IMG/VR virus record: IMGVR_UViG_3300009120_000072
Coordinates: 1 to 53,294 of that record
Reading direction: 5' to 3' (one strand)
Length of the DNA: 53,294 nucleotides
From: a virus
Lineage: Duplodnaviria; Caudoviricetes
Part shown: positions 1,576-36,695 of the stretch, one piece after another
Layout of the letters: each line of letters starts with the position of its first letter
How positions within the stretch are numbered: position 1 is the first letter of the stretch
Translations under genes and position numbers: made by a program
The notes under the pieces: generated by a model
The model's input: the letters and a program-made list of their open reading frames with translations, nothing else
What the model was told of the DNA's origin: nothing
The model's database searches: none

Positions 1576-1925
1576 GGGGGTGTCTTGGTTTCGACAGGAT
1601 TTCGTTTGATTCAGGGTGCAGTGGTGTGGCTACCTAAAGGCTAAAAAAATAACTGGAAACAGACTTTCTTTCGCTGCTTAATTAGCAACTAACAAGCTAT
1701 CAGCGCGTCCGGTACGGCTTTCCCATTGGGCCATACCCTGACGTCAGAAACGATGGGTAAGTGCAGAGTAGTTCGCTCAGCGAGGCTGCATCGACAATCC
1801 AGTGAGCAAATCAACGCTTGTTTGTCTATTTCTTAAGGGTTGATCAAAAGCAAATAGAATAAACTGTAGACCTCTGAATGTGGGACACTTCTTGGACAGG
1901 AGTTCAATTCTCCTCACCTCCACCA
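1576..1925 (+). ncRNA. ssrA: tmRNA
   Basis: 5' GGGGGTG...TTCGAC and 3' T-arm AGGAG-TTCAATT-CTCCT followed by CACCTCC-ACCA; acceptor stem with the G3:U alanine determinant; internal tag frame. Confidence 0.97.
1655..1681 (+). other. tmRNA proteolysis tag reading frame (A)GNRLSFAA*
   Basis: ATAACT resume context, then GGA AAC AGA CTT TCT TTC GCT GCT TAA. Confidence 0.9.
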
Positions 1926-3445
1926 ACCTTATCTCTTGTCACTTCCTTTCCAGTGGAAGTGATTTTTCTATTCTTGGCTAGCGGATCAAGTTTGAAATCA
2001 ATTTTGACTTCATCGTCATAGATGAGGATTTTGTCTACTAAAGCTTCAATGATTTCTCTTTTAACGTTATCATCAGCGTCGTTTAGTTTGTCTCGCAAAT
2101 CATACATGAAAAATTTGATCTTCTCAATTTTCAAGTTTTCAAAAGCATCAACATTAATTTGTTTTAATCTTGATTCGTAATGGTCAATCTGTTCCTTCAT
2201 TGAGTTTGTTTTTTCAACGATAGTTTCTTTTGAAATATTTCCTTCCAAATACAAATCAAATAGTTTAGTAACTTGAGACTTTAACAAGTCTCTTTTTTTC
2301 GTTAAATCCTTGATCAAATCCTTATTGATGAAAATAGCCTTATCAGCAATGTTCAAAATCATATTGGCTAGTTCTTCTATTTGCTCGTTGCCTAAAATTT
2401 CATTTTTTATCATATCCAGAACGTAATTTTCAAGTAAATCAGCTCGAATCCGTTTATTTGTGCATCCTGTTTTTCGCTGGCTGGAGTTACAGGCATAGTT
2501 AAAATACTTTGTTTCTCTATCTCTTCCAAGCACATATGAACCACCGACATATGCGGATCCGCAAGATCCACAGAAGAGCCTTCCGGTAAGCAAATATACA
2601 CGAGTGGCATTCTTGCGTGGTTTACTGTTTTCACTCAGCTTTATCTGAACGGAATTCCATAGTTCATCTGATATGATCTTCGGTAATGCTCCTTCAATTT
2701 TTGTTATTTCGTTATCCTTTTTAAAAACTCGATTGCCGGTCTTTTTAGACATACGTTTATTAAAAACATAAGTGCCGATATATTTCTCATTTCGCAATAT
2801 ATCAAAAATACTGTTCTTTCCGAATGTTTTATTTAATTTAGTCTTGAATCCCTGTTCATTTAACGATTTAGCTATTGCACCATAACCATAACCATTTGCA
2901 TACATTTCAAAGATAATACGCACAGATTGCGCTTCTGCAGGGTTTAATGTATAAATCTGATCCACACCAACATCAAAGCCTAAAGGAGGCACACCGCCAT
3001 TGTGTAGCGCTTTGAGAGCGTTCTCGTTCATCCCTTTACGAACTTCACGTGCTAAATTCATAGAATAGTACTCAGCCATGCCTTCCAAGACTGATTCTAG
3101 GATAACTGATTCTGGACTATCATCCAGTTGCTCAAGAACTGATACAATCCGCACGCCATTTTGTTTCAGCTCACGTTTATAAAAAGCGCTATCATATCGA
3201 TTGCGTGCGAATCGATCCAGCTTGTGAACGATTACTGCCTGAAATATCCCGAGCTTTGAATCTTTTATCATTTGAATAAACTGCTCTCTTTTATCAGTTG
3301 TGGCACTCATGGCTTCATCCTGATAGATCCGGACAATGTCAAATCCGTTCTTATCACAATAAAGTTTGATCGCTCTTATTTGCGCATCGATGGATTCCTG
3401 TCGCTGGTTATCGCTAGAAAAACGAGCATATACTGCAACTTTCAT
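1904..3445 (-). CDS. Large serine recombinase (phage integrase)
   Basis: YARFSS catalytic Ser, KLDRFAR, recombinase domain, CGSCG zinc ribbon, coiled coil; last codons overlap the tmRNA. Confidence 0.96.
   Translation of the reverse strand: MKVAVYARFSSDNQRQESIDAQIRAIKLYCDKNGFDIVRIYQDEAMSATTDKREQFIQMIKDSKLGIFQAVIVHKLDRFARNRYDSAFYKRELKQNGVRIVSVLEQLDDSPESVILESVLEGMAEYYSMNLAREVRKGMNENALKALHNGGVPPLGFDVGVDQIYTLNPAEAQSVRIIFEMYANGYGYGAIAKSLNEQGFKTKLNKTFGKNSIFDILRNEKYIGTYVFNKRMSKKTGNRVFKKDNEITKIEGALPKIISDELWNSVQIKLSENSKPRKNATRVYLLTGRLFCGSCGSAYVGGSYVLGRDRETKYFNYACNSSQRKTGCTNKRIRADLLENYVLDMIKNEILGNEQIEELANMILNIADKAIFINKDLIKDLTKKRDLLKSQVTKLFDLYLEGNISKETIVEKTNSMKEQIDHYESRLKQINVDAFENLKIEKIKFFMYDLRDKLNDADDNVKREIIEALVDKILIYDDEVKIDFKLDPLAKNRKITSTGKEVTRDKVGGGEEN
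1914..1926 (+). repeat. attL core of prophage 1 (TCACCTCCACCAA)
   Basis: Identical to 36683-36695; corresponds to the tmRNA 3' end. Confidence 0.92.
1939..1967 (+). terminator. Phage-supplied terminator for ssrA, inside the integrase coding sequence
   Basis: TCACTTCC-8 nt-GGAAGTGA-TTTTT, starting 14 nt after the tmRNA CCA. Confidence 0.7.
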
Positions 3446-3446
3446 A

Positions 3447-4547
3447 TTAAGAATCTCGTAGCAAAGTTTTAATATAAAGTATCCAATATTTCATATGGAT
3501 AAAAGCCTCACTTAACTCAGTTATATCGATCCAGTGAACACTTTCCTTTGTTAAAACTTGAATCTGTTTTTTTCCTCTAAGCTTAACTCTTCCAAATTGC
3601 ATCTTGTTAATCTCAAAATTCAAAGTGCCATTCGACATACGTCTAATTTCTATTTCATCAACTATTTTATTCTCTTCTAGTTGCAACATAAGTCTATCGT
3701 AAAATTGTTTTTCTTCATCACTAAACGAGTTCATCAGTTGATTCCTACCATATTCCTTGAGTTCCTTAGTGTTAATGTAAATTTCTTTACAAGATTCAAG
3801 TAATTTATGTGTAGTGTAGCAATCATGAAGTGATCTATGCGAAGAGTAATCTAAACCTAAGTATTTTTTTATAGTTTCGAGTTTATGATTATTAAGGTTT
3901 GGGTAATACTGACGAGCGTAATCAACTGTATCAATTACCGGGAAATTTAGTTCAAAATCATCTGTCAACCCATTTATTGCAGAAACTAAGAACTTCAAAT
4001 CAAATTCTGCATTGTGAGCAACTAACGGTGATTCCCCTATCATAGTTACAACCTTCTGAATTACTTCATAGATTTTGGGTGCTTCAGCTATCATTTCATT
4101 TGTTATTCCAGTAATAGAGATAATCTCATTAGAAATCCTTACTTCTGGGTTAACTAATGTTGAAAACTCTTCAACAATTAAAGAGTTTTTGACTTTAATT
4201 AATGAAACTTCAATAATCCTACTTTTCACTGGTTCAAAACCTGTGGTTTCAAAATCAAGAACGACATATTCATCAGGGAAAAAATCCATATATTTTTGGA
4301 AAGTAAGTCGCTTAGGGAAGAATAAATTGTACCTGTAATTGATTTTACTTCCATCAATTTCATTTGCTACAGTACTTTTAATCCTTGATTTTGATTTATT
4401 TTTTTGTTTAATCAATATACTCACAATAGCAAAAAGAAACACAAAAAGAAATGCAAGAAAGAACTCACCTGCTATCAAGAGACTAACAACAATCAGAAAG
4501 TAAAATAATCTGAAAAGTATAATCATTATTTTTGAAATGGTTTTCAT
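3447..4547 (-). CDS. Membrane-anchored DEDDh 3'-5' exonuclease (DnaQ-like)
   Basis: Two N-terminal hydrophobic segments; VLDFETTG, VAHNAEFD, HRSLHD exonuclease motifs. Confidence 0.85.
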   Translation of the reverse strand: MKTISKIMIILFRLFYFLIVVSLLIAGEFFLAFLFVFLFAIVSILIKQKNKSKSRIKSTVANEIDGSKINYRYNLFFPKRLTFQKYMDFFPDEYVVLDFETTGFEPVKSRIIEVSLIKVKNSLIVEEFSTLVNPEVRISNEIISITGITNEMIAEAPKIYEVIQKVVTMIGESPLVAHNAEFDLKFLVSAINGLTDDFELNFPVIDTVDYARQYYPNLNNHKLETIKKYLGLDYSSHRSLHDCYTTHKLLESCKEIYINTKELKEYGRNQLMNSFSDEEKQFYDRLMLQLEENKIVDEIEIRRMSNGTLNFEINKMQFGRVKLRGKKQIQVLTKESVHWIDITELSEAFIHMKYWILYIKTLLRDS

Positions 4548-5167
4548 AGAGCCCTCCTTATTTCAACCACTTTTCCAACAATTGTAATAGGCAATAAAGA
4601 CATCTGATCTTTATTATAAAATGTCTTATTAAATAGAGGATTGAGAGGAATCAACGTAATGCCATCATCTTGTATTAATACTTTTTTGCAAGTTGCTTCG
4701 TCTCCGTTTACCTTTACAATAGCAATACTACCGCTATCGACTGAAGATTGCTGTTTTATGATTAGTGTATCACCATCCTCAATACGAGGATTCATAGAAT
4801 CTCCCTTAGCTTTCAAACCAAAGAACTCGCCTTTTTTCGACATCTCAGCGGAGATTTCTTCAAAATCTATAATATTTTCTATAGCACTTATTGGAACGCC
4901 ACAAGGCACTTCACCTAACACAGGGATCTTAATTCCGGTCGAATTTCTAAAAAAACTTTTATCTTCAGTAAGTTCTGATTTGTAAACTCCAAAATAATCA
5001 GCAATCTGCTGAAGCCGATCAATTCTAGGATATTTTCTTCCATTAACCCAATCAGACACTGTCGCTTGGCCAACTTGTAAATCATGAGCAATATCCATTT
5101 GTGTCTTATTATTAATTCTCATATATTTACCTAAGTTTCTAGAAAAAACATCTCTGTTTTCAATCAT
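4544..5167 (-). CDS. CI-like repressor, XRE HTH + S24 peptidase
   Basis: HTH (TQMDIA...TVSDW), PCG cleavage-site region, GDSM Ser and ATCKK Lys. Confidence 0.92.
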   Translation of the reverse strand: MIENRDVFSRNLGKYMRINNKTQMDIAHDLQVGQATVSDWVNGRKYPRIDRLQQIADYFGVYKSELTEDKSFFRNSTGIKIPVLGEVPCGVPISAIENIIDFEEISAEMSKKGEFFGLKAKGDSMNPRIEDGDTLIIKQQSSVDSGSIAIVKVNGDEATCKKVLIQDDGITLIPLNPLFNKTFYNKDQMSLLPITIVGKVVEIRRAL

Positions 5168-5196
5168 GCGTTATCACCACCTTAAATATATTATAT

Positions 5197-5277
5197 ATTC
5201 CTTTAAGCGAAATAAAAAGCACATTATTAAAATATTATTCACTTTAAAGTTGACAGTATCGCTTTAAGCGATATAAT
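5197..5277. promoter_or_regulatory. Prophage 1 genetic switch: rightward promoter and 15-bp operators
   Basis: TTGACA(5250)-16 bp-TATAAT(5272) with palindrome ATCGCTTTAAGCGAT (5258-5272) in the spacer; variants at 5197 and 5238. Confidence 0.8.
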
Positions 5278-5296
5278 TTAATCAAGGAGGGTTAAT

Positions 5297-5554
5297 ATGG
5301 CAACATTTACCATTACACTAAAAGCAGCTAGAGTAAACGCACACAAAAATCTTAAGGATGCTGCTCAACATTTGGGAGTCACAAAAAGAACAATATTGAA
5401 TTGGGAAAACGGAACAACTGTTCCAGATCATGATTTGGCAGCGAAGTTAGCAGATTTTTACGAAATTGACATATCATACATTTTTTTTGGTAGGAATATC
5501 GCTAAAAGCGAATCAAATCGCTTAAAGAGGACAAGAAATGATTCGACTGGGTAA
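5297..5554 (+). CDS. Cro-like XRE HTH protein
   Basis: ITLKAARVN...AAQHLGVTKRTILNWENG; divergent from the repressor. Confidence 0.9.
   Translation: MATFTITLKAARVNAHKNLKDAAQHLGVTKRTILNWENGTTVPDHDLAAKLADFYEIDISYIFFGRNIAKSESNRLKRTRNDSTG
5498..5531. promoter_or_regulatory. Two further operator copies in the cro 3' end
   Basis: ATCGCTAAAAGCGAA (5498) and ATCGCTTAAAGAGGA (5517). Confidence 0.65.
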
Positions 5555-5720
5555 AAAATTATACACACCGACACCATTAATGATATGGATTTCAACAATC
5601 ATCTCATTAATTGCCGGTTTCATGTTAGAGGGCGCAACGGCATTAAACCACCTGTTCCTACCAATAAGTCTAGCAGTAGTTTTTGGTTATATAGCATTAA
5701 GCGGCAAACATGATCGTTAG
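5538..5720 (+). CDS. Small two-TM membrane protein
   Basis: 60 aa, two hydrophobic helices, RBS, in operon. Confidence 0.6.
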   Translation: MIRLGKKLYTPTPLMIWISTIISLIAGFMLEGATALNHLFLPISLAVVFGYIALSGKHDR

Positions 5721-5772
5721 GAAAGAGTGATCGGACTTCAACTCCGGTCATCTATCAAAGAAAGGAACCAAT

Positions 5773-6543
5773 ATGCAAGAACTTCAAGTGTTTCAAAATA
5801 TCGAGTTTGGTAATTTAGGAGTAACAATCAGCAACGGTAAGGAATACTTTCAAGCTACTGATGTTGCAAGAATGTTAGGATATACGAATCCGCATAAAGC
5901 AATTCAAGACCATTGTAAAAGTGTTAAACAAATACGAACTAACGATTCGTTAGGTCGTCAGCAAGAAATAAATTTTATTCCAGAAGGCGATTTGTTCAGG
6001 TTAATTGTAAGATCGAAACTTCCGAGTGCAGAAAAATTCGAACGTTGGGTATTCGATGAAGTTCTTCCAACACTCCGCAAGCATGGCGCTTATCTTACTC
6101 CAGATGTACTGGAAAAAACGCTATCTGATCCTAATTACATCATTGGAATAATTTCGGCACTTGCCGAATCGAAGAAGGAGTTGGCTATGAAAGATCAAGT
6201 CATCGGTGAATTAAAGCCAAAGGCTGATTATCTGGATAGAATTCTGAAATCGAGATCACTTGTTACAATCACTCAAATTGCGAAAGATTACGGAATGTCT
6301 GGAGTTGCAATGAATCGATTGCTTCACGATAAAAAAATCCAATACAAGCTTGGTGATCAATGGCTTCTTTATTCTGAATATCATGACAAAGGTTTTACTT
6401 CCAGCAAGACAATAGTCATTGAAGATGTACCAGGCAGCGAGAAGGTGGTCATGCAGACTTACTGGACTATGAAAGGAAGGCTATTTTTATACAACTTACT
6501 TAAAGAGGATGGAATTATTCCAGTCATTGAAGGGATTGACTAA
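5773..6543 (+). CDS. Antirepressor, Bro-N + KilA-C/ANT domains
   Basis: ATDVARMLGYTNP, IPEGDLFRLI, FERWVFDEVLP; C-terminal ITQIAKDYGMS. Confidence 0.9.
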   Translation: MQELQVFQNIEFGNLGVTISNGKEYFQATDVARMLGYTNPHKAIQDHCKSVKQIRTNDSLGRQQEINFIPEGDLFRLIVRSKLPSAEKFERWVFDEVLPTLRKHGAYLTPDVLEKTLSDPNYIIGIISALAESKKELAMKDQVIGELKPKADYLDRILKSRSLVTITQIAKDYGMSGVAMNRLLHDKKIQYKLGDQWLLYSEYHDKGFTSSKTIVIEDVPGSEKVVMQTYWTMKGRLFLYNLLKEDGIIPVIEGID

Positions 6544-6682
6544 ATGAAAAAAACGAAAAAACAAAGATGCAATATCGGCGATCGAAAAGTGACAAGCAAT
6601 ATCGACCATATTTCAATCGATAAAGAAGTTTTGTCTAAAGTGTTATTCCGATTATTCTTGAGATCGTGTGGTGTTGATTATT

Positions 6683-7513
6683 ATGAAGAAATCAGATATC
6701 CCAGCACTTCTTGATGAGTTTATCATCGAACTTAAATATCAAGAAAAAGCAGAAAGAACTCTTATGAAGTATCGAGCTGATGTGATTAAGTTCATAGAGT
6801 TTGTTCAGCACGATAATCCAATTAGCAAAGATGATGTTTTGGAATATAAGAAGTTTATCAGCTCCGGCCAGTATAAGCCTAGAAGCATTAATTCCTACAT
6901 TGTGGCATTGAATAAGTTCCTGAAATGGTGTGGTCAAGAAAATCTAAAAGTTAAGAAGTTAAAGATGCAGCAAAGGAATAGCATCGATGACATTATCAGT
7001 TTTAGTGATTATAAGCGACTGCTGCGATTTGCCAAGAAGCTTGGCTATGTAGATATCTTCATGATCATGAAGATTATCGCCACAACTGGCATCCGAATAA
7101 GCGAGTTGAAGTTCTTTACAGTCGAAGGGATTAAATCATTCTACATTCATGTGAGGAACAAAGGCAAAGACAGAGATATTATACTAACGCAAGAATTGGC
7201 AAGAGAGCTGCGCAAGTACTGCCGAGATCACAATATCAAATCTGGCCGGATATTCAATCTTGGCGATGTGGCTATATGGCGAAAGATGAAAAAGATAGCC
7301 GGTGCATCTAGGGTGAATAAAGAGAAGGTACACGCTCACAGCTTTAGGCACTTATTCGCAAAGGAATTTATGGCCGAGTACAATAATGCGCTGGAACTGG
7401 CCGACATTCTCGGTCATAGTTCACTAGAAACAACCAGGATCTACACACGATCGACAAACGAAGAGAAGCGTAAAAAGCTTGAAAAAATGAAAATCAAAGG
7501 AGTTAAAAAATGA
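6683..7513 (+). CDS. Second, Xer-like tyrosine recombinase in the early region
   Basis: TGIRISEL, NKGK, HSFRH, LGHSS..TT.IY catalytic R-K-H-R-H-Y set; no arm-binding domain. Confidence 0.93.
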   Translation: MKKSDIPALLDEFIIELKYQEKAERTLMKYRADVIKFIEFVQHDNPISKDDVLEYKKFISSGQYKPRSINSYIVALNKFLKWCGQENLKVKKLKMQQRNSIDDIISFSDYKRLLRFAKKLGYVDIFMIMKIIATTGIRISELKFFTVEGIKSFYIHVRNKGKDRDIILTQELARELRKYCRDHNIKSGRIFNLGDVAIWRKMKKIAGASRVNKEKVHAHSFRHLFAKEFMAEYNNALELADILGHSSLETTRIYTRSTNEEKRKKLEKMKIKGVKK

Positions 7514-7788
7514 GGACTTTTAAATCAGTAAGACCACTTGAAGAAGTAAAAAAATTAATGTTAGAACAGGGTTATTTTATTCCTTCAAAAAGTCAAAAGG
7601 CATATAACGATGGAAGTGATTGGATTTTATTTTGCAGACCAGAGCGAAGGATTCAATATAGGCCACATGATGGATCGTTTGCATTGATAAACAGTGTTGG
7701 TTACGTCATTGCGACACATTTAAGTGAAGAATTTGAGGATAGAGAAGATTATCAAGAACTACTTAACATCTTCTATATAAGTGAGTGA
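7510..7788 (+). CDS. Hypothetical phage protein
   Basis: ATGA-coupled ORF with RBS. Confidence 0.65.
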   Translation: MRTFKSVRPLEEVKKLMLEQGYFIPSKSQKAYNDGSDWILFCRPERRIQYRPHDGSFALINSVGYVIATHLSEEFEDREDYQELLNIFYISE

Positions 7789-7794
7789 CAAAAG

Positions 7795-8571
7795 ATGGCT
7801 GAGCGAAGAATGTTTGCAAAAACAATCATAGATTCAGATGCATTTCTTGATATGCCTGCAACAACACAATTGTTGTACTTCCACTTATCCATGAGAGCTG
7901 ACGATGACGGGTTTATAAACAAACCTAAAACAATAATGAGGATGATTGGAAGTAAAGATGATGACATCAATTTACTAATTGCAAAAAAGTTCTTAATACC
8001 ATTTGAAAGCGGTGTAGTGGTTATAAAACACTGGAAAATCCACAACTACATTAGAAAGGACACCTACAGCGAAACAAAATATAAAGACGAGAAAGCACAG
8101 TTGGAGTTTGATGAAAATAACGCTTATAAGCTTTCGTCTACAATCCGTCACCGTATCGTCGACGGAACGTCGACACAGGTAAGGTTAGGTAAGGATAGTA
8201 TAGGTAAAGAAAAAGATAATAATGTTTCATTTAGCAATGAAACGATTGAATTTAAACTGGCAGAACTTCTTTATCAATCAATTGTAAAAAACGATGATAA
8301 GTTCAAAAAACCGGATTTGTCAAAATGGGCGGATCATATCGATAAGATCATCCGAATTGATAAAAGAACAGTAAAAGAAATTGAAGAAGTGATCAGATTT
8401 GCGTCAACCAATGATTTCTGGAAGAGCAATATCCTATCAACCGCCAAACTGCGCAAACAGTTTCCAACACTGGTAATCCAAATGAAACGAGGTGAAAAAG
8501 GTGCAACCAATTCAAAACCTGTTGAAAAGAGCAATAAACCAGAATGGGATATCGAAGGAATCATCATATAG
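7795..8571 (+). CDS. Replisome organizer / replication initiator
   Basis: MAERRMFAKTIIDSDAFLDMP N-terminal domain; C-terminal FWKSNILS..KLRKQF domain; short internal repeats around 8135-8205 (probable ori). Confidence 0.88.
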   Translation: MAERRMFAKTIIDSDAFLDMPATTQLLYFHLSMRADDDGFINKPKTIMRMIGSKDDDINLLIAKKFLIPFESGVVVIKHWKIHNYIRKDTYSETKYKDEKAQLEFDENNAYKLSSTIRHRIVDGTSTQVRLGKDSIGKEKDNNVSFSNETIEFKLAELLYQSIVKNDDKFKKPDLSKWADHIDKIIRIDKRTVKEIEEVIRFASTNDFWKSNILSTAKLRKQFPTLVIQMKRGEKGATNSKPVEKSNKPEWDIEGIII

Positions 8572-9313
8572 CGAAACGAGATGCCAGCACTGGAATGATG
8601 TCGAAGGTGAAATGACCGGCCATGATTGCCGGAAGTGTAAAAACAAAGGATACATCATGATCATTGATAACAGCGGATATGAAGCTCTGAAAGAATGTGA
8701 ATGTATGCCATCAAGAAGAAGCATGGCAATCATCCGGAAGAGTGGACTTGAAAAACTGTTGGATGAATACACCTTCGAAAATTACACAACCAGCCAGGCA
8801 TGGCAAAAGCAGATCAAAGATTCGGCATTGCGATATGTAGATGACTTAATCGGTAATTGGTTCTTTATTGGCGGACAAGTCGGAAGTGGAAAATCACATA
8901 TTTGCACCGCCATTGTAAAGGAGCTGATGATGCGAGGAAATGAAGCACTTTATATGCGATGGCGAGATGATAGCGTGAGTTTGAAAAAATCGATCATGGC
9001 TGAAGGATACGAATATGCTGAAGAAATCAAACGGTTCAAGAATGTTAAAGTGCTGTACATTGATGACTTCTTCAAAACAGAAAGAGGAAAGCAACCAACT
9101 GCAGCTGACATCAACCTAGCATTTGAAATATTAAACCACCGGTACATCAATAAAGATTTGATCACAATTATTAGTTCTGAGTTAAGTATCAACGAACTGC
9201 TGGACATTGATGAAGCGATCGGATCGAGAATATACCAAAGGTCAAAAGGATACTACTTGGCCATTACAAAAGATAGCGGCAAAAACATGAGAATGAAAGG
9301 GAGCAAGCTATGA
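8501..9313 (+). CDS. DnaC/IstB-like helicase loader ATPase
   Basis: CxxC...CxC zinc motif, GQVGSGKSH Walker A, LYIDD Walker B. Confidence 0.9.
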   Translation: MQPIQNLLKRAINQNGISKESSYSETRCQHWNDVEGEMTGHDCRKCKNKGYIMIIDNSGYEALKECECMPSRRSMAIIRKSGLEKLLDEYTFENYTTSQAWQKQIKDSALRYVDDLIGNWFFIGGQVGSGKSHICTAIVKELMMRGNEALYMRWRDDSVSLKKSIMAEGYEYAEEIKRFKNVKVLYIDDFFKTERGKQPTAADINLAFEILNHRYINKDLITIISSELSINELLDIDEAIGSRIYQRSKGYYLAITKDSGKNMRMKGSKL

Positions 9314-9603
9314 GAAAGTTTCGCAAAGAAGTTGATTATTACTGGTACAACTTCGATAAACTCGTCAACAGCAAGAATACGGATGATAAGAAATGGATCA
9401 AGATAATTTCCGATATTAAAAAAAAATATGCCGGAACAAACATCGGTGAAATGATCCGGCTGAAGTACGAAATGAAGCAGAAGGAAACAAACATCTTGTA
9501 CCTTCTGGGAATCGAAAGAACAACATATTATGCCTGGTTGAACAAGCTCACAAACGAAATCACTTTACGAGCTGCATATGAGCGGCTGATCAAACCATTT
9601 TAA
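9310..9603 (+). CDS. Probable RinA/ArpU-like late transcriptional activator
   Basis: C-terminal HTH-like LGIERTTYYAW. Confidence 0.5.
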   Translation: MRKFRKEVDYYWYNFDKLVNSKNTDDKKWIKIISDIKKKYAGTNIGEMIRLKYEMKQKETNILYLLGIERTTYYAWLNKLTNEITLRAAYERLIKPF

Positions 9604-9635
9604 TATCGATACGATAACAAAAGAAAGGTAAATAC

Positions 9636-10145
9636 ATGGAAAACTTAATAAATCACTTCTTCGAGAAAATGAATGAAGAAATGAAAAATGAACACTCGCC
9701 ACTTGAAGATAAAATTCATAACTGGCTATGTGATCAGGTTAATGACATTGAATTAATGCAAGCTGTAGTCATTGAAGGTAAAAGTATCAAAAGCGCTGTT
9801 CACTACTTTTTCGATAAGCTCGCAAAAGAATCAGTGAAGATAGGAAACAATGTTTCATACGCAGGTTGTTCTGACGATGAAGGATATGCAATCGTTCGCG
9901 AGTATTTCTTGAGCGACTTAAAAGAAGTGAAAGCAAGTCAACTGTACTCGGTTCAATCCAAAGGCAAAGAGCAAAAGAATCAACCAGTGGATGCCGAACA
10001 AAGTAAAGAAGTTGAAAAGCCGAAGAAAGTCGAAAAGAAGGCAAAACCGAAAAGCGATGATTTAATATCAATATTTGATTTTATCGATGAACCGGATGCA
10101 TCCGATGAAGAAGATGGCGAAGATGAAGAATCAGACAACGATTGA
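9636..10145 (+). CDS. PcfK-like protein
   Basis: GKSIKSAV, SDDEGYAIVREYF, acidic ISIFDF tail; precedes PcfJ; homologous to 47070-47585. Confidence 0.75.
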   Translation: MENLINHFFEKMNEEMKNEHSPLEDKIHNWLCDQVNDIELMQAVVIEGKSIKSAVHYFFDKLAKESVKIGNNVSYAGCSDDEGYAIVREYFLSDLKEVKASQLYSVQSKGKEQKNQPVDAEQSKEVEKPKKVEKKAKPKSDDLISIFDFIDEPDASDEEDGEDEESDND

Positions 10146-11607: not shown

Positions 11608-11621
11608 AGAAAGGTAGCAAA

Positions 11622-11789
11622 ATGAAAATTAAAGATTTGATTAAAGCATTTGCAACAACGCAGCCAAAAGCAGAAATTGAGCTGTCACCATTCATCCGGC
11701 CAGCTGGCCAGGGTTACAACGAGTTTGTGCGCTATTGCATGGCAAAGCGAATAAGTAACCAAAGGAAGCGCAAACAGCGCAGAGCGTAG
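11622..11789 (+). CDS. Small basic hypothetical protein
   Basis: AGAAAGG RBS before MKIKDL. Confidence 0.55.
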   Translation: MKIKDLIKAFATTQPKAEIELSPFIRPAGQGYNEFVRYCMAKRISNQRKRKQRRA

Positions 11790-11793
11790 CGAT

Positions 11794-11943
11794 ATGGAAG
11801 CGATACTGACACACATCGGAGCAACGATGCTCGGTGCAATCTTCGGATTCTTCCTAGCGGCACTAATGGCCATATCCGGAAGAGATTCCGATCGTGAAAT
11901 GATGCAAGAACTTCCGGATGACATGAAAGCGAAAGCGAGGTAA
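11794..11943 (+). CDS. Small single-TM protein (DUF3789-like), not in the ORF track
   Basis: MEAILTHIGATMLGAIFGFFLAALMAISGRD, 49 aa; analogous ORF at 48909-49013. Confidence 0.55.
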   Translation: MEAILTHIGATMLGAIFGFFLAALMAISGRDSDREMMQELPDDMKAKAR

Positions 11944-11948
11944 CAAAC

Positions 11949-12224: not shown

Positions 12225-12237
12225 AAAGGTAACAACT

Positions 12238-12683: not shown

Positions 12684-12715
12684 ATCACTATGTATTCATA
12701 GAAAAGAGGTTAAAA

Positions 12716-21803: not shown

Positions 21804-21822
21804 TCCAAAGGGGTGATAACAC

Positions 21823-23207: not shown

Positions 23208-23209
23208 AC

Positions 23210-23833: not shown

Positions 23834-23846
23834 AAGGAGCTAATTT

Positions 23847-24376: not shown

Positions 24377-24394
24377 TGAAGGCAGGTGATGATT

Positions 24395-27186: not shown

Positions 27187-27188
27187 TT

Positions 27189-28997: not shown

Positions 28998-29099
28998 TTT
29001 ATAGTCTGTAGGGCGAAATAAAACCAAATAGAGTTCAATGTATTAAATTACGGTGGGTGGAGGGTTGCAATACTTTTACTAAAAGAAAGAGGTAAACTT

Positions 29100-29453
29100 A
29101 TGGCAAGTGAAATCATGGTGGCCGGAAAGAATCTGATGCTCAATGCATTAGCCGGATCAGCTCTTTATATGGCACTTTATACAGATGTAGATGGAACAAC
29201 AGAAGTTAGCGGTGGAGGTTACACGCGAAAATCAGTGTCTTGGGCAGCGGCAAGCAGTGGTCAGCTCGTAACAAGTGCAGATGTATTATTTGATATCCCA
29301 GCAGGAGCAACGGTTCGCAAAATCGCTGTGCTTAGCGCTGTTAGTGGAGGAACTAAATACGCGCATATTGATCCAAGTAACATCGAAACATGGATAGGTG
29401 CAGGAACAAGCAAAGTACCGGCAGGAACAGGGTTTGTTTTAAATCTTCCATGA
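29100..29453 (+). CDS. Small tail/fibre-associated protein
   Basis: ALYT..TEVSGGGYTR..V.W motif; tail module. Confidence 0.65.
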   Translation: MASEIMVAGKNLMLNALAGSALYMALYTDVDGTTEVSGGGYTRKSVSWAAASSGQLVTSADVLFDIPAGATVRKIAVLSAVSGGTKYAHIDPSNIETWIGAGTSKVPAGTGFVLNLP

Positions 29454-29480
29454 TAACTCCGATAGAAAGGAGTTAAGTTT

Positions 29481-30743
29481 ATGCCAATTGTAAAAAAATA
29501 TGCCCAAGTGGTTTCTACCGTAAATACATGGACTAATCCTGAAAACATATTTGCAGATGATGGGGTATATGCCACTACAGGAGGAACAAGAAACGGAAAT
29601 CATGACATTATAGGAAGTGATTTTGGTTTCACTATTCCGACAGGTTCAATAATCAATTCAGTGACTGTGGAAGTAGAATACAAGTTATCAACTACTGCTT
29701 CAGCTGCTACTTTAACATTACAGGCGCAGTACAACGGATCACTAAAAGGAAGCGCTAGTACAACCACAAACGAACCAACAGTTGACACAATATGGGATAC
29801 AAGTAACACAGGATCATGGAGTGTCGATGAATTAAATAACGAATTAGCAGAGGTTCTATTTCGAGTAAGAAGAACATCCAATACTGGGTGTACCTATTCT
29901 GTTGATTACATATCAATTGAAGTTGACTATACAGAACCAAGTTATGACTTTGATATTAGTGGTTCTATCAATCAATTCAGTTCCTTATCTGGAAACGCAA
30001 CAAAAGAAACATCCATAGCTGGTTCTATAAACCAAAGCCAATTATTGACCGCAAATACTGAAAAGATAGTAGATTTATCCGGAAGCATCAATCAAGCAAG
30101 CACATTGTCTGGAACAATTGAAAATGTTGCAATCGTGCATCACGATATCAGTGGTTCCATTAATCAAGCAAGCACATTGTCTGGTGGATTGAGCAAAACT
30201 TCAGATTTGTCCGGTGAAATTGGCCAAAATCAGACGGTGAGCGGAAATGCCGAGAAATCGGCAAATATGAGCGGTAGTATCGATCAAACAATTAATTTAT
30301 TTGGAAAGTCAATTAAAGTAGTTTCAATCGGTGGAACCATTGAACAGCCACAAACGCTATATGCATTCATCATTAAAGATGGTGAAGAAAGCACAGAAAA
30401 AGAGCTGGCCGGAAGTATTAACCAAACATCTGTTATAACCGGCGGAATTTTAAAAATAACCAGTATAGAAGGCAGCATACAAGCTTTGTCGGTTTTGAAC
30501 GGTAATTGTATAAAATCGGCTGATCTGTTCGGTTCAATCATTATCATCGCAGAGTTAACTGCAGTGATCACAAAGTTTGAATATACAGATACAAGAATAG
30601 TCAGAGTAATCCAAATTACAGCCAAGCTTAATGGCATACTCCAAAATGATGTGATCATAGGGAATCGATATCACCATCAATCCATATTGAATGGTGCTAA
30701 TAAATCGACCACAGTGATTGAAATCATCACAGAAAGACGGTGA
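29481..30743 (+). CDS. Tail-associated protein with ~20-aa (I/L)SGSINQ repeats
   Basis: Beta-rich N-terminal domain followed by multiple SGSINQ.S.LSG repeats. Confidence 0.65.
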   Translation: MPIVKKYAQVVSTVNTWTNPENIFADDGVYATTGGTRNGNHDIIGSDFGFTIPTGSIINSVTVEVEYKLSTTASAATLTLQAQYNGSLKGSASTTTNEPTVDTIWDTSNTGSWSVDELNNELAEVLFRVRRTSNTGCTYSVDYISIEVDYTEPSYDFDISGSINQFSSLSGNATKETSIAGSINQSQLLTANTEKIVDLSGSINQASTLSGTIENVAIVHHDISGSINQASTLSGGLSKTSDLSGEIGQNQTVSGNAEKSANMSGSIDQTINLFGKSIKVVSIGGTIEQPQTLYAFIIKDGEESTEKELAGSINQTSVITGGILKITSIEGSIQALSVLNGNCIKSADLFGSIIIIAELTAVITKFEYTDTRIVRVIQITAKLNGILQNDVIIGNRYHHQSILNGANKSTTVIEIITERR

Positions 30744-30749
30744 TAAGAT

Positions 30750-31061
30750 ATGATTATCGAAGCATATCAGGGTGAAACAGTAAAAATTGAAACTAGTGTG
30801 GTTGATACATCCGGCAACGCTGCAAACTTAACTGGAGCAATTGCAAAATTTGCTTTGCTCCAGCCATCCGGCGATAAAATCACTAAAGACTGCAGTATCA
30901 GTGAAAACGTTGTGCAAATCACGTTGTCACCGGAAGAAACTGCTGATGTTGGATTTTATCGTTTCGAAATAAGAATAAAGTTAAATGATGAAGTAGATAG
31001 TCTTGTAATTGGGGATATGCAGATTCGAGAATCTCTAATTACATCCATAGAAAGTGAGTGA
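30750..31061 (+). CDS. BppU-like baseplate protein
   Basis: YQGET..NLTGA...LSPEETA..G.Y.FEI pattern. Confidence 0.6.
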   Translation: MIIEAYQGETVKIETSVVDTSGNAANLTGAIAKFALLQPSGDKITKDCSISENVVQITLSPEETADVGFYRFEIRIKLNDEVDSLVIGDMQIRESLITSIESE

Positions 31062-32152
31062 TCAATATGGCAGTAAGAAGCGGATTTTTCAATAGCATTG
31101 ATAGTGACCGATTGTACGATGCTTCGAGGTTTGCGGAATACTTTGCAGCATTTATCGGAACAGGGGTGTTCTCTGATCCAACAACAAGCTTGCAGGTTCA
31201 AGTCGATACCGGTATGAATGTGAAGATTAAGACTGGAAAAGCATGGATCAATGGCTACATTCTTGTCAGTGATGCCGATTATACAATGGCGGTTCCTTCA
31301 GAAGCTGTGTTGAATCGTATTGATCGAATCGTTGTTCGGCTTCATTATGCAAACAGGGAAATGACGATCGTACGTAAAGCTGGTACTGCAGCATCATCGC
31401 CAAGCGCACCGGCAGTGACCAGGGATGCCAACATGTATGAATTATCACTGGCCACAATTACGGTCAATGCCGGTACAAGCACGATCACATCCGGAATGAT
31501 TAGTGATACACGATCGGATGCCAGTGTTTGTGGCTATGTTTCTTCCACCATTACAAACTTGCCATATTTGACACCGGATAAAGTGCTGATATCTGATCCG
31601 GATGGAAAACTTGTTGTAAGCTCTGTTTCCAAAAATGAACTTGATTATTTGATAGGTGTATCATCCAACATTCAAACACAATTAAACGGTAAGCAAGCCA
31701 CAATAAACGGCGCAGCATCAACGATCGTTTCAAGCAACTTAACTGCAAATCGTGCGCTAATAGCAAACGCAAGCGGGAAGGTAGCTGTTTCATCCATAAC
31801 GGAAACTGAAATCGGTTTTTTATCTGGTGTTTCATCCAATCTTCAAACACAGTTGAATGGTAAGCAGGCTACAATTAGCGGCGCAGCATCAACGATCGTA
31901 TCCAGTAATCTTACTGCAAACAGAGCGCTTCTGTCGGATGCCAGTGGCAAAGTAGCGGTATCATCGATAACAAACACAGAGCTTGGACACTTATCCGGTG
32001 TAACTGCTGCCATTCAAACGCAACTGAATGGGAAGCTTGGAACATCTGCACAAGCTGCTGATTCACTGAAAGTCGGCGGTAAAAAGATTTCTGTCGGTAC
32101 ATCAGCACCATCATCACCTGCAGTCGGTGATGTGTGGATCGATACGAACTAG
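31058..32152 (+). CDS. Baseplate/tail fibre protein with three internal repeats
   Basis: RSGFFNS..DRLYDA, RIDRIVVRL; three ..GK..VSS...E...L.GV...IQTQLNGK repeats; GDVWIDT terminus. Confidence 0.8.
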   Translation: MINMAVRSGFFNSIDSDRLYDASRFAEYFAAFIGTGVFSDPTTSLQVQVDTGMNVKIKTGKAWINGYILVSDADYTMAVPSEAVLNRIDRIVVRLHYANREMTIVRKAGTAASSPSAPAVTRDANMYELSLATITVNAGTSTITSGMISDTRSDASVCGYVSSTITNLPYLTPDKVLISDPDGKLVVSSVSKNELDYLIGVSSNIQTQLNGKQATINGAASTIVSSNLTANRALIANASGKVAVSSITETEIGFLSGVSSNLQTQLNGKQATISGAASTIVSSNLTANRALLSDASGKVAVSSITNTELGHLSGVTAAIQTQLNGKLGTSAQAADSLKVGGKKISVGTSAPSSPAVGDVWIDTN

Positions 32153-32164
32153 GGGTGATGTAAA

Positions 32165-32800
32165 ATGGCTCAAGGCATTTTTGGATATAGCGCTCTGGCG
32201 GTCAATTTCAGTAGATGGGGCGGAGTTCCGTATTATGCGAACGTTGCATTACGAGCTGTCATGCCGGAAGATGGTACGGTTCTAAAGATAGCACTTAAAC
32301 TTGGAAGGAATCAAGATTCGGATACTCCAATTGTTTGGGGTGTAATTTGGGATCGTGACAATGGAAATCTTTTGGCGGTGTCACCAGCTTCACAATCGCC
32401 AAACAACACATTTACCGGATCATACTCATCATTACTTACCTATACATTTGATTTGCCGGAAGTGAAGATTGCGGCCGGAAAAGCATTGTGGATCGGATGT
32501 GCTAAACGATCCAATGAAAGCAACAGAGCATTATATTTTGGTTCAAGGCAATCGTTAAGCGGTTATACCACTGATTATCAAAACGTTTCAAGATCATCGC
32601 CTGGAAACTTCAGTGCAGTTACCGGAACATGGTCAAGTGAAGCATTATGGGTAGAAGTAACTTATCGAACCGGCGGTCAGGTCAAAGTGTGGACAGGCGC
32701 TGCGTTTGTAGAGAAACCGGTCAAAGTGTTTGACGGTTCTCAATGGGTAGAAAAACCGATTAAAGCGTGGGATGGTTCTTCCTGGAAGGAAAGTAACTAA
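32165..32800 (+). CDS. Putative receptor-binding / tail tip protein
   Basis: Beta-rich; C-terminal VKVW.G..W.EKP repeats. Confidence 0.6.
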   Translation: MAQGIFGYSALAVNFSRWGGVPYYANVALRAVMPEDGTVLKIALKLGRNQDSDTPIVWGVIWDRDNGNLLAVSPASQSPNNTFTGSYSSLLTYTFDLPEVKIAAGKALWIGCAKRSNESNRALYFGSRQSLSGYTTDYQNVSRSSPGNFSAVTGTWSSEALWVEVTYRTGGQVKVWTGAAFVEKPVKVFDGSQWVEKPIKAWDGSSWKESN

Positions 32801-32821
32801 TAAAAAGAAAGAGGTACTGTT

Positions 32822-33553
32822 ATGAAAAAAATTTATTTAAGTCCGTCAAAACAACCAGCAAACATTTATTATGACAGAAAGCACACCGAAGAATTGGTGA
32901 TGAATTGGATCGCTGATGCAATGGTTTCGTTTTTGTCAAAGTATGATGTTCAAGTGTTGCGTGGTGGCAAAGATCAAGATTTAGTAAGCAGAGCAGCTGA
33001 AGCAAATCGTGAGCAAGTTGATTATTATTTTGCCATACATTCAAACGCTGGTGGTGGTATTGGCTGTGAAGTTTTCTATCAAGTCGGAGTAGACAAGTCT
33101 GCTGATGTTAAGACAAAATCAAAATCATATGCAAATAAGGTGAACACCGACTTATCAGCAATCACTCCACTAATGACAAAGGTTGGTGATCGTGGTATTA
33201 AGTTCAAAACATTGTTAGATGGTCGAGATTGGAATAATGAGTTGCGCAACACTAAAATTCCAGCAAACTTGGTTGAAATTGAATTTCACGACACAAAAGC
33301 CGGAAGCGAATGGATCTTGAACAACATCAAACTGATTGCTGAAACCATGAGTAAATCAATCGTTGATATGTTGGGTGTTCAGTTAAAACAGACTATCCCT
33401 GCAGATGACTTCTTCTTCGTTCAAACCGGTGCTTATAAAACGCTTGCTGAAGCTGAAGCTGAAGCAGTCAAACTTGCAAAACTAACTGGCAAAGAAGTTG
33501 GTGTTAAGTATGGCAGCAAATTTGCGCTAAAGTGGATCAAAGGCATTAAATAG
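32822..33553 (+). CDS. Endolysin, Amidase_3 with SPOR-like C-terminus
   Basis: IYLSPS, AIHSNAGGG, LVEIEFHD; VQTGAYK. Confidence 0.88.
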   Translation: MKKIYLSPSKQPANIYYDRKHTEELVMNWIADAMVSFLSKYDVQVLRGGKDQDLVSRAAEANREQVDYYFAIHSNAGGGIGCEVFYQVGVDKSADVKTKSKSYANKVNTDLSAITPLMTKVGDRGIKFKTLLDGRDWNNELRNTKIPANLVEIEFHDTKAGSEWILNNIKLIAETMSKSIVDMLGVQLKQTIPADDFFFVQTGAYKTLAEAEAEAVKLAKLTGKEVGVKYGSKFALKWIKGIK

Positions 33554-33570
33554 ACAGGCGGTATCTCCAA

Positions 33571-33930
33571 ATGGATGTAGAAAAAATCTTTCTTGAATAC
33601 TGGTTACATTTTCTTCTGACAGGATTGTCAGGGTTTCTTACTTGGGTGGTTTATCGATTAAAAAATAAATTGGAATTATCCACAAAAAGATGGAACGCAA
33701 CTGAAAACGGTGTTCAAGCGCTTTTAAGAAATGAGATTATCAAATCATACAATCACTACATGGAAAGAGGTTTCTTGCCAATCCATGAACGTGATAACAT
33801 CAATAACTTGTACAAGCAGTATCAAAATCTAGGTGGTAACGGTACGGTTCCAAGACTAATGGAAGAACTTGAGGATCTGCCGGTTCACGATATATCCGTA
33901 CGGATGAAAGGGGATTATTATAATGAGTGA
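33571..33930 (+). CDS. Holin-like single-TM lysis protein
   Basis: N-terminal TM, GVQALLR, Y..LGGNG. Confidence 0.7.
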   Translation: MDVEKIFLEYWLHFLLTGLSGFLTWVVYRLKNKLELSTKRWNATENGVQALLRNEIIKSYNHYMERGFLPIHERDNINNLYKQYQNLGGNGTVPRLMEELEDLPVHDISVRMKGDYYNE

Positions 33931-34213
33931 GTTCTTTACATGGGAGTTTCTCGCAACATTTGCTGGTAGCGTTGCATTTGTTACCGCAGTGACCGAAGTG
34001 ATTAAGTATTATCTGTCAAAGGTCGATCCGAAGTATATTGCTTTGGTAGCAGCCATCGTGGTGACATTTGCGGTGCAGCTGTTGTTTTACAAAGACTTCG
34101 CACCGGAAGGATTGGTTCTGGCAGCATTCAATGTGATTGCTGTGCTATTCGGCTCAATCGGTGCATTTGAAGCCATTGTTAAACCGATCGAACGAAAACT
34201 AACAGATAACTAA
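33923..34213 (+). CDS. Holin, three TM
   Basis: EFFTWEFLATFAG; three hydrophobic segments. Confidence 0.8.
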   Translation: MSEFFTWEFLATFAGSVAFVTAVTEVIKYYLSKVDPKYIALVAAIVVTFAVQLLFYKDFAPEGLVLAAFNVIAVLFGSIGAFEAIVKPIERKLTDN

Positions 34214-34243
34214 AAAGAGAGGTCTAATCCTCTCTTTTTTTTT
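34212..34243 (+). terminator. Terminator after the lysis module
   Basis: AAAAAGAGAGG-TCTAAT-CCTCTCTTTTTTTTT. Confidence 0.85.
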
Positions 34244-34249
34244 GGCAGA

Positions 34250-34280
34250 CCTGGATTTGCCACATACCTTGTGTTAAAAT
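34250..34280 (+). promoter_or_regulatory. Probable RM promoter with a CCWGG site over the -35 region
   Basis: Extended -10 TGTTAAAAT at 34272-34280; CCTGG at 34250-34254. Confidence 0.5.
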
Positions 34281-34345
34281 GAGATTAGAAAGAGATAATC
34301 TCTATAAATTAGTTCATTGCACCTAATAAAAGGAGGTGGATATAC

Positions 34346-35347
34346 TTGGCAAATTTTACTTTTATTGATTTATTCGCAGGAATCGGGGGAATCCGCTTGG
34401 GGTTTGAATCAATTGGTGGTTCTTGTATATTCACAAGCGAATGGAATGAGTGGTCAAAGAAAACATACATAGCAAACTTTGGTGAAGGAGAAACAATTGT
34501 TGGTGATATAGTACCTTTCCCTTCTGAAGAGATTCCAGATCATGATGTGCTTTTAGCCGGATTTCCATGCCAACCTTTTTCTATTGCAGGTGTTTCTAAA
34601 AAAAATGCACTAGGTAAACCACATGGATTTGAGTGTACTACACAAGGTACACTATTTTTTGATGTTGCGAGAATTATTGCCGCAAAGAAACCTAAAGCAT
34701 TTTTGCTTGAAAATGTTAAAAATTTAGTTTCCCATGACAAGGGTAGTACATTTAAAATCATCATTGATACTTTAGAAAAAGAATTAGGTTACCATGTTTT
34801 TTGGAAAATTATTGACGGACAAGGGTGGGTTCCTCAACATAGAGAACGCATAATTATAGTGGGATTTAGGAATAAGGTTGATTTTTCATGGGATGATTTG
34901 AATATTCCAAGTGAACGCATATTACTAAAATCAGTATTGCATCCTGAAGATGGATCAGAAAAAACTGAACCACCATATACAACGGGTACTAATGCCAAAG
35001 TTCATTCAAAGTATGTCTTATCTGATAATCTATGGAAATATCTTCAAGACTATGCGGCAAAGCACAAAGCCAAAGGAAACGGTTTTGGTTTTGGTTTGGT
35101 CACAGAGAATGATATAGCAAGGACATTATCTGCACGATACTATAAAGATGGTTCAGAAATTTTAGTTTCTCGTGGAAAGAGGAAAAATCCTCGAAGGTTA
35201 ACTCCTCGTGAATGTGCGAGGTTGATGGGTTTCGATGATTCATATAAAATTGTCGTTTCTGATACACAAGCGTATAGGCAGTTTGGAAACTCAGTAGTGG
35301 TTCCTGTGATAAAAGAAGTTGCTCGACTTATGGAGCCATTTATCTAG
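34346..35347 (+). CDS. dcm: DNA (cytosine-5) methyltransferase, Dcm/M.EcoRII-like
   Basis: [60 protein letters not shown]; TTG start with AGGAGG RBS. Confidence 0.92.
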
Positions 35348-35366
35348 GAATGAGGGTGGTGAAAGA

Positions 35367-36581
35367 GTGAAAGAAGGATACTTATCTCAATACTTTAAAG
35401 GTATTGCTGTAAAAACCTTGAGCGCAGTAGAAGCGGATGTTACAAAAAGTCATCAACATGAATTTAATGGTGCAGCACCTTTAAAGAGAATTTTTAGTAT
35501 TGAAAGAAATAAGTATGAAGCAAACTTTATCTATCTAAATGATAATGACGATGAACCGGTTACGGATAAAGGGTACTTAACATGGTATGATGCAAGGGAA
35601 AATCATCCAACTCGAACAGAGTATCGAATGTATTTTCCTACTACAGCTGTATCAGTATGTACTACTGCCGGCGATACATTGTTTATTGGATTAAGGCCGG
35701 ATAATACTGTTTTAGTTGTTATTACTGAAAATGGATCAACGATTGGTAATCAGGTTCGTTGGTTGTTTGGTGTTGAAAATGCCTTATTTCCTAGTTTTTC
35801 TATCAGAGAAGAATTAGAAAGCGAGCAAGATAGAATTGCGTTTGCATCTAGATTTATCCTTGAAGAATTAGGGATTGAAGTAGAAGAGAATGCACCAAAT
35901 TATCTTGATGAAATGTTACATATATTTAATGGTAACTTTCCATCAACCAAAGAATTTTCACTATATGCACGTTCGACAATTAAGGACTTAGATCCTCGTG
36001 TTGATCCTTCAGATATCGTACTGATGGGGTGGATGGAAAGAGAAGAAATACTTTTCAGGACGCTAGAAAAATACTTAATAGCTGACCGATTAACCGCTGG
36101 GTTTAGTGATGATGTAGATGGGTTTATCAATTTTTCTCTTTCAATCCAAAATCGCAGAAAAAGTCGTGTTGGTCACGCATTAGAAAATCACATAGAACAA
36201 ATTTTAATATGCCGAAATGTTAGTTACGATAGAACAAAGATTACAGAGAATAAATCAAAACCGGATTTTATTTTTCCGAGCATAGCTAAATACCGTAATC
36301 CTAGATTTGACGAAACACTTCTCACAATGTTGGGTGTAAAGAGTACTTGTAAAGACAGATGGCGGCAAGTTTTAACGGAAGCTGACAGAGTAAGGCGGAA
36401 GCATTTGTTAACATTAGAAGCTGCTATAAGTGAAAATCAAACCAATGAAATGATGTATAATGAACTACAGTTGGTTGTTCCTAGTAGCCTTCACAAAACA
36501 TATTCATTAAGGCAACAACAGTGGTTGGTAACTATGGATGATTTTATTTCAATGGTAGTGGAACGCCAAAAAGTAGGATGA
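35367..36581 (+). CDS. Type II restriction endonuclease, EcoRII-like
   Basis: N-terminal KTLS...SHQ effector-like domain; NRRKSRVGHALE, KPDFIFP, KSTCKDRWRQV catalytic motifs. Confidence 0.9.
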   Translation: MKEGYLSQYFKGIAVKTLSAVEADVTKSHQHEFNGAAPLKRIFSIERNKYEANFIYLNDNDDEPVTDKGYLTWYDARENHPTRTEYRMYFPTTAVSVCTTAGDTLFIGLRPDNTVLVVITENGSTIGNQVRWLFGVENALFPSFSIREELESEQDRIAFASRFILEELGIEVEENAPNYLDEMLHIFNGNFPSTKEFSLYARSTIKDLDPRVDPSDIVLMGWMEREEILFRTLEKYLIADRLTAGFSDDVDGFINFSLSIQNRRKSRVGHALENHIEQILICRNVSYDRTKITENKSKPDFIFPSIAKYRNPRFDETLLTMLGVKSTCKDRWRQVLTEADRVRRKHLLTLEAAISENQTNEMMYNELQLVVPSSLHKTYSLRQQQWLVTMDDFISMVVERQKVG

Positions 36582-36582
36582 T

Positions 36583-36606
36583 AAAAAGAGGCCGGAGCCT
36601 CTTTTT
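36583..36606. terminator. Bidirectional terminator
   Basis: AAAAAGAGGC-CGGA-GCCTCTTTTT. Confidence 0.85.
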
Positions 36607-36615
36607 AAATTGATA

Positions 36616-36682
36616 TTAATTTGCCTTACAATATTGATAGATATCTTTTCTTGTTCTGACAAGAGGTATGGTTAGGTACGGT
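36616..36682 (-). other. Detached 3' end of the serine integrase gene, joined only in the excised attP state
   Basis: In frame after GGGE: PYLTIPLVRTRKDIYQYCKAN*, with a terminator just downstream. Confidence 0.8.
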
Positions 36683-36695
36683 TCACCTCCACCAA
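36683..36695 (+). repeat. attR core of prophage 1 / displaced tmRNA 3' end
   Basis: TCACCTCCACCAA, identical to 1914-1926. Confidence 0.92.

Follow-up and report, generated by a model that had tools for sequence, protein, structure and literature searches.

A temperate phage at ssrA whose serine integrase gene spans attP and has its 3' end exchanged upon integration

The stretch of DNA analysed here (the window) comprises positions 1 to 53,294, i.e. 53,294 nucleotides, of IMG/VR virus record IMGVR_UViG_3300009120_000072, and contains a siphovirus-like temperate prophage of ~34.8 kb which is inserted at the 3' end of ssrA, the gene for transfer-messenger RNA (tmRNA). The current work concerns the large serine integrase gene of this prophage (here named int), which runs through the attachment site, so that recombination interconverts two forms of the gene, encoding 532 amino acids (aa) on the circle and 513 aa in the prophage. 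The features at both ends of the prophage are as follows:

1576-1925, + strand: tmRNA gene (ssrA), identified by ARAGORN and by Rfam RF00023 (121.1 bits, E 7e-47)
1914-1926: attL copy of the 13-bp core TCACCTCCACCAA, one of a unique 13-mer pair, at the centre of the 26+2+26 attP palindrome
36683-36695: attR copy of the 13-bp core, the other member of that pair, which is the displaced original tmRNA 3' end
1916-36684: prophage 1, ~34.8 kb, siphovirus-like, annotated with PHROGs on 41 open reading frames (ORFs)
1904-3445, - strand: large serine integrase in its prophage (attL) form, 513 aa, an ORF with the Pfam domains Resolvase, Recombinase and Zn_ribbon_recom and with fold matches to the SPbeta, LI, Bxb1 and phiC31 integrases
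36616-36682, - strand: stranded int 3' end (third base of codon 511, PYLTIPLVRTRKDIYQYCKAN and TAA), joined to int in the excised (attP) form only, with a motif common to relatives
36582-36607: two-way terminator-like hairpin between an EcoRII-like gene (+) and the int tail (-), from a terminator scan
36696-36733, + strand: native ssrA terminator, now 34.8 kb from its gene (terminator scan match at 36705-36723)

Across the window the 13-mer TCACCTCCACCAA is found at 1914 and 36683 only, the number of matches expected by chance being ~0.04 when the 48 words at the tmRNA end are counted. The same 33-nt tmRNA end is present in 14 GTDB loci, and in six of these (L175-178, L180 and L186) it is directly followed by a native-type terminator, while the remaining eight continue into other sequences, phage DNA being next in none. 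Because uninterrupted tmRNA ends run into this same type of terminator, the segment 1916-36684 has been inserted between ssrA and the native terminator, and the final 10 nt of the tmRNA gene (1916-1925) come from phage DNA after the crossover. PHROGs assigns a complete siphovirus-like gene set to the insert, with repressor, anti-repressor, replication, terminase, portal, capsid, tail and endolysin genes, together with a restriction-modification pair. The element is a temperate phage that a large serine integrase has inserted at the ssrA 3' end.

The last 22 nt of int overlap the 3' end of the tmRNA gene, the two genes being convergent, and the protein ends in KVGGGE-EN*. Residues 1-511 are encoded by the phage, while the third base of codon 511, codons 512-513 (EN) and the stop codon TGA are read from the tmRNA antisense strand. 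This had been claimed in an earlier reading of the letters of the window by a model without database searches (the sequence-only reading), and the ORF at 1904-3445 (-) together with the ARAGORN and Rfam calls for the tmRNA bears it out. That reading had further claimed that joining attR to attL yields a protein of 532 aa with a terminator close behind it. A join by coordinates, performed with a script and also checked by hand, indeed gives ...EVTRDKVGGGE-PYLTIPLVRTRKDIYQYCKAN*, with the stop codon at 36616-36618 and 21 residues added to the 511 shared ones, and the hairpin at 36582-36607 lies 8 nt past this stop. The hairpin lies between an A-run and a T-run, and termination is therefore predicted on both strands. 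The third base of codon 511 is G in attL and A in attP, which specifies Glu either way, and the two proteins thus diverge from residue 512.

The int product is a large serine integrase with resolvase-type catalytic, recombinase and zinc-ribbon domains and an inserted coiled coil. It contains PF00239 (E 4.3e-29), with R8, S10, S11 and Q14 invariant across 34 relatives, as well as PF07508 and PF13408, and long helices at residues 336-470 of the model match the coiled coil of the LI integrase (5uae). Domain order and fold are shared with the integrases of SPbeta (SprA), Listeria LI/A118, Bxb1 and phiC31 (Z 13.6-18.2).

The attP site was rebuilt from the two junctions, and its arms are:

1916-1941: P' arm of attP, 26 bp, 19/26 identical to the P arm as an inverted repeat
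36657-36682: P arm of attP, 26 bp, encoding tail residues 1-8 (PYLTIPLV) and bearing the outer motif CTCTTGTCA, from the attP reconstruction

The rebuilt attP is an imperfect palindrome of 26+2+26 bp, and the identity between its arms (19/26 as inverted repeats) is reached in 0 of 20000 shuffles. Its centre, GA in the sense of int, corresponds to TC at 1914-15 and 36683-84, lies within the 13-bp identity and forms bases 1-2 of the Glu511 codon; we infer that TC (1914-1915) is the crossover dinucleotide. The P' arm restores the acceptor/CCA end of the tmRNA and encodes the linker residues VTRDKVGGG. The outer motif CTCTTGTCA occupies positions 18-26 in both P arms, and in the tmRNA-side B arm it is matched at 7/9 at positions 12-20, 6 bp nearer the centre, the best match in the B' arm being at most 4/9. 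A register shift of the zinc-ribbon domain by about 5 bp at attB is described for the phiC31 structures in a preprint (10.1101/2025.05.02.651858). A palindromic attP of about 50 bp, a central dinucleotide shared with attB and a zinc-ribbon register shift between attP and attB are all traits of characterised large serine integrases. The attP arms are at the same time coding inverted repeats, the VTRDK of the linker and the IPLV of the tail being specified by near reverse complements, and in relatives the two peptides change together (TQGK with LPFV).

The weight of the case for the tail rests on relatives. In a protein search 7818 of 7995 scored candidates were hits at E 1e-30 or better, 120 of these being listed. 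Among the matches listed, 21 are at least 57% identical, and 12 of them end in GG[GD][EK] followed by a tail of the type PYLTLPFVRTRxEIY (for example PYLTLPFVRSRSEIYQLCRTS and ACLILPFVYTRKDIYAYKVI); conservation of a tail beyond GGGE, on which the sequence-only reading had staked its claim, is therefore found. Another seven of the 21 stop as EEN* or read on as ESRTPV.. or GSRTPV.. (the tmRNA T-arm in antisense), and two are odd. A regular expression applied to all 120 listed proteins returned 37 of the tail type, 57 antisense or short and 26 unclassified, several of the last group bearing a tail by eye. An alignment of ten tails has L, P and Y without any change and E, R and I with hardly any, the preceding linker being variable in both length and sequence; the extreme C-termini of tails also vary (..CKAN, ..CRTS, ..NGNY, ..SAAY, ..YQYC).

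Both states of the gene are encountered among relatives. The IMG/VR loci L001 and L003, with integrases 69-73% identical to that of the window, adjoin a tmRNA gene. The contigs L005 and L008 carry the long int form without a tmRNA, and their holin and endolysin genes converge on int, which is the gene order expected of an excised genome; the suggestion that the excised form is the complete gene is thereby upheld. An independent lysogen is provided by the contig of L001 (record G001), with cores at 2760 and 34092, where the int form at attL ends in GGDE-ESRTPVQEVSHIQSSTV and attR encodes PYLTLPFVRTRTQIYAYSKAS ahead of the native terminator. Stranded tails beside a tmRNA remnant are also present in L167, L170 and L171. 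Of 80 GTDB loci that contain relatives, 25 have a tmRNA gene and eight a tRNA gene overlapped by the int 3' end; 44 have neither there, and in three no ORF was found. The same gene-end swap is a property of a large integrase clade which targets ssrA or tRNA genes. Integrases of a sister clade, which possess a short linker without GGGE, keep an alignable tail (LTETITMRRGELY.., LTETITMRRGELYEMF..) in bacterial contigs. The layout and the conserved tail are, in our judgement, almost certainly real.

In the phage GenBank collection the best int relative is only 43% identical, so that no close cultured phage is present there, and a metagenome scan with the C-terminal alignment returned one locus, again the L001 contig. 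A 31-nt attR pattern had no match in IMG/VR, and a 20-nt version of it found the contig of L005 only. Three further observations were made on individual loci. L002 (IMG/VR, = P0008) encodes a 70%-identical integrase ending in GGGD-GSWNFNNWRKNTS* (2556-2611), and neither a tmRNA (locus including 2.7 kb downstream) nor the tail motif was found there. L169, in a complete Eubacteriaceae chromosome, has the full-length ..GGGE-PYQFTVTININDYQHINRL* form in the chromosome, where the clipped form would be expected. Finally, the tag peptide given by ARAGORN for the L001 tmRNA (4524-4872) is a long ANKNIWKQTFFRCLIS, that of the window and L003 being GNRLSFAA; the long peptide is probably a miscall of the resume codon.

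The linker codons of int carry one more element:

1938-1973, + strand: terminator-like hairpin followed by a T-run, 12 nt past the tmRNA end and inside the int linker codons (terminator scan; fold -13.4 kcal/mol, z -1.8)

A hairpin of this kind is present in 17/66 distinct related int 3' regions, including those of L001, L002, L003 and L008, versus 3% of shuffles. The linker codons would double, on the opposite strand, as the tmRNA acceptor/CCA end, the P' arm and a terminator-like hairpin, and the hairpin is probably a replacement terminator for ssrA which the phage supplies from inside int.

The structure of the tail was modelled with AlphaFold2 on P0002, a protein 84% identical to the window integrase, using a 34-sequence alignment. 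The linker (492-511) has a predicted local distance difference test score (pLDDT) below 50, and it is followed by a predicted strand (515-522) and helix (523-532) with pLDDT 73-86. According to these models, attP falls within the part of int that encodes a disordered linker, which joins the last zinc-ribbon hairpin to a strand-plus-helix tail. When a fragment of 80 residues was modelled, the tail was still a strand, and the only other strands were in the terminal hairpin. The tail would probably add a third strand to this terminal zinc-ribbon hairpin. Alignment with solved integrases ends at model residue ~491-509, and nothing in them matches the tail.

How the two forms may be deployed depends in part on the genes preceding int:

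3447-4547, - strand: DnaQ-like (DnaQ/RNase T-type) exonuclease (Pfam, PHROGs)
4544-5167, - strand: CI/LexA-like repressor (Pfam, PHROGs)

The exonuclease gene, whose product has a hydrophobic N-terminal stretch, lies between the repressor gene and int, whose start codon is 1 nt away, and the stop/start spacing of the three genes, head to tail on one strand, suggests a single operon. In the scheme proposed here, the long 532-aa form would act at infection as the integrating enzyme, with the tail as a working part, whereas the short 513-aa form would be made in the lysogen, probably together with the repressor, and would serve excision with a putative recombination directionality factor (RDF), excision restoring the long form. 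The two forms would then be expected to differ in integration efficiency, in RDF response or in stability. The tail most likely serves the integration phase, because it is kept by selection and yet is absent from the excising enzyme; conversely, it is not needed for the chemistry, because the prophage-borne short form must still excise. A switch in stability or directionality had been suggested in the sequence-only reading, and the conservation of the tail in relatives leaves that suggestion unrefuted. We put the probability that the two forms differ functionally at roughly 0.5.

Several points weigh against the reading in which the two forms differ. Runs of at least 21 open codons often arise by chance (frequency 0.22 in shuffled local sequence and 0.36-0.39 over the window), so that the length of the tail ORF is uninformative by itself. 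A profile matched through the tail in only 8 of the best 150 hits from a 50%-identity representative library, which is too diverse for a clean tail census. Excision neither requires the tail nor is prevented by it, since in the prophage it has to be carried out by the short form and in the sister clade by a tailed enzyme. Confidence in the fragment model is modest (pLDDT ~60 for the tail), tail contacts not being directly visible in it. Finally, a set of observations places constraint on the DNA: the 26-bp P arm spans the codons of tail residues 1-8; in six DNA sequences codons 1, 2 and 6 (CCG, TAC and CCT, for P1, Y2 and P6) are invariant wherever the residue is kept; and a small and weak test of the ratio of nonsynonymous to synonymous change (pN/pS) gave 0.68-0.77 for the five sequences of the closest group and 0.32-0.33 for the four of a second one.

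Taken to its limit, this last set would mean that conservation is entirely at the level of DNA, of the P arm and the neighbouring terminator, and that no tail peptide matters, for which the fixed CCG TAC and CCT codons and a pN/pS near 0.7 in the closest group would speak. We regard this as improbable. Tail residues 9-16 lie outside the 26-bp arm, and R and Y, which are conserved at tail positions 11 and 15, are 30-45 bp from the centre; synonymous codon changes occur at L3, T4, V8 and Y15 in the same six DNA sequences; the sister clade keeps the motif without such a position of the att site; and AlphaFold2 gives the tail confident secondary structure. Because R and Y are conserved beyond the arm, the sister clade keeps the tail and secondary structure is predicted, a role of the tail as protein is favoured, the constraint on the tail being both protein- and DNA-level. 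A more serious competitor, possible although we would not expect it to be correct, is that compaction has produced the layout as a neutral by-product: a tmRNA 3' end and a replacement terminator have to be present beside int in the phage, the int frame merely runs through them, both forms work alike and the tail is retained by descent only. The disordered linker of variable length fits this explanation, as do the several uses of the linker codons (tmRNA antisense, P' arm, terminator hairpin), the need for the short form to be active in excision, and prophage-form endings that are arbitrary in length and sequence, as noted for the integrase DsiB by McMurdie et al. (PMC3146451). A dispensable tail should decay, however, and yet L, P and Y stay invariant, and the R outside the arm nearly so, in relatives that are 45-84% identical, and the tail is predicted to be structured.

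A difference in half-life rather than in recombination would follow if the tail carried or masked a degron, the precedent being the integration-dependent immunity of the BPs type (PMC4557955), in which a C-terminal degradation tag is removed by integration. The very ends of the tails lack conservation, though, and the conserved part is a strand with the first helix turns, suggesting packing rather than a terminal tag. An Ala-Ala end is the typical form of a degron of the ssrA-tag type, and none is found among the tails. Such a stability switch is, in our judgement, also unlikely to account for the two forms.

With regard to the preferred reading, in which the two forms differ in function, it is at present a speculative suggestion that the difference lies in directionality. 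Near the C-terminus of the SPbeta integrase, F532 is described as lying against the RDF and as mattering for directionality (PMC11722253), and in phiC31 the extreme C-terminus is presented as part of the RDF interface (10.1101/2025.05.02.651858). Because these C-termini meet the RDF, a tail on the last hairpin would be well placed to affect RDF response or the path of the coiled coil. More speculative again is the specific form of this idea, that the tail is a built-in directionality element which packs on the zinc-ribbon domain by the surface of the RDF and the coiled-coil hinge and holds the integrating mode. Integration would then remove the tail and leave an enzyme that responds to an RDF, or needs less of it, for excision; the recombination product would write direction into the gene, and the tail codons would double as one of the DNA binding sites of the enzyme. 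As stated already in the sequence-only reading, no RDF is recognised in prophage 1, here among 41 ORFs examined by PHROGs, several of which have no PHROG hit; serine-integrase RDFs are described as being without a common structural theme (PMC11795197).

The closest known counterpart is DsiB, an ssrA-specific serine integrase encoded on genomic islands in Dehalococcoides (McMurdie et al. 2011, PMC3146451). It is, like the window integrase, a serine recombinase of ~540 aa encoded by attL on the reverse strand, with a 3' end that always overlaps attL and a stop codon in ssrA or beyond, and its authors suggested that it is possibly fully functional on the circular element only. The traits of a DsiB-type element are present in the window, namely insertion at the ssrA 3' end, a short direct repeat, and int by attL reading into ssrA. 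However, the DsiB islands are mobilisable whereas the window element is a full temperate phage, and the six-gene DsiB module with the small serine recombinase DsiA is absent here, the neighbours of int being the DnaQ-like exonuclease and the CI-like repressor (Pfam, PHROGs). The overlapped part was judged divergent in that paper, in which a conserved tail of the excised form is not reported.

In myxophage Mx8, attP similarly lies within the integrase gene (IntP/IntX), and integration creates a new 3' end with changed enzyme properties (PMC6070905), but Mx8 uses a tyrosine recombinase and the sites attB1/attB2 rather than ssrA, the window integrase having serine recombinase domains only. BPs resembles the window in that a phage gene spanning attP receives a new 3' end upon integration; there, however, it is the repressor gene that is edited, and the integrase is a tyrosine enzyme, whereas the repressor of the window (4544-5167) is untouched, 2.6 kb from attL. 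The 'suicidal' archaeal integrases of the SSV type also have the att site within the integrase gene (PMC8371274), but they are tyrosine recombinases whose gene is split into two large parts, while in the window the last 21 codons alone are detached. For SPbeta SprA, LI/A118, Bxb1 and phiC31, no description of attP inside int was found in the literature consulted. Besides McMurdie et al. 2011 no description of a serine integrase gene spanning attP was found in a literature search that excluded subscription journals, so that its absence is not proven; PMC12007190, PMC12884075 and PMC3556126 contained nothing of relevance. The layout is already known, from DsiB and, for a tyrosine integrase, from Mx8, and the window is a real, ordinary member of a little-studied kind, to which it adds a clean phage example at ssrA, a conserved and probably structured tail of the excised form, and the linker terminator.

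The value placed on serine integrases comes from the control of their direction by a separate RDF protein alone. A clade whose own reaction rewrites the C-terminus of its enzyme would add a second, testable layer of control. In addition, integrases of this clade which are mined from integrated prophages carry artefactual C-termini. A large mining study took its coding sequences from bacterial genomes, and its main text is without mention of tmRNA, tRNA or C-terminus (PMC10083194). Such mining would consequently overlook the integrating form.

Other features of the window are recorded here for completeness. At the right end of prophage 1, next to attR, a cytosine-5 DNA methylase and an EcoRII-C-type restriction endonuclease (34346-36581, +) constitute restriction-modification cargo. 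A second prophage begins just past the ssrA terminator, with the tandem repeat GGGGATACAA x2 at 36737-36757 and a tyrosine integrase at 36759-37817 (-), its right end being beyond the window (53294). Segments of the two prophages are 70-79% identical (6196-8094 versus 42614-46052), and each encodes, in its early/replication region, an extra Xer-like tyrosine recombinase with Phage_integrase and SAM-like domains (6668-7513, +, and 44189-45010, +).

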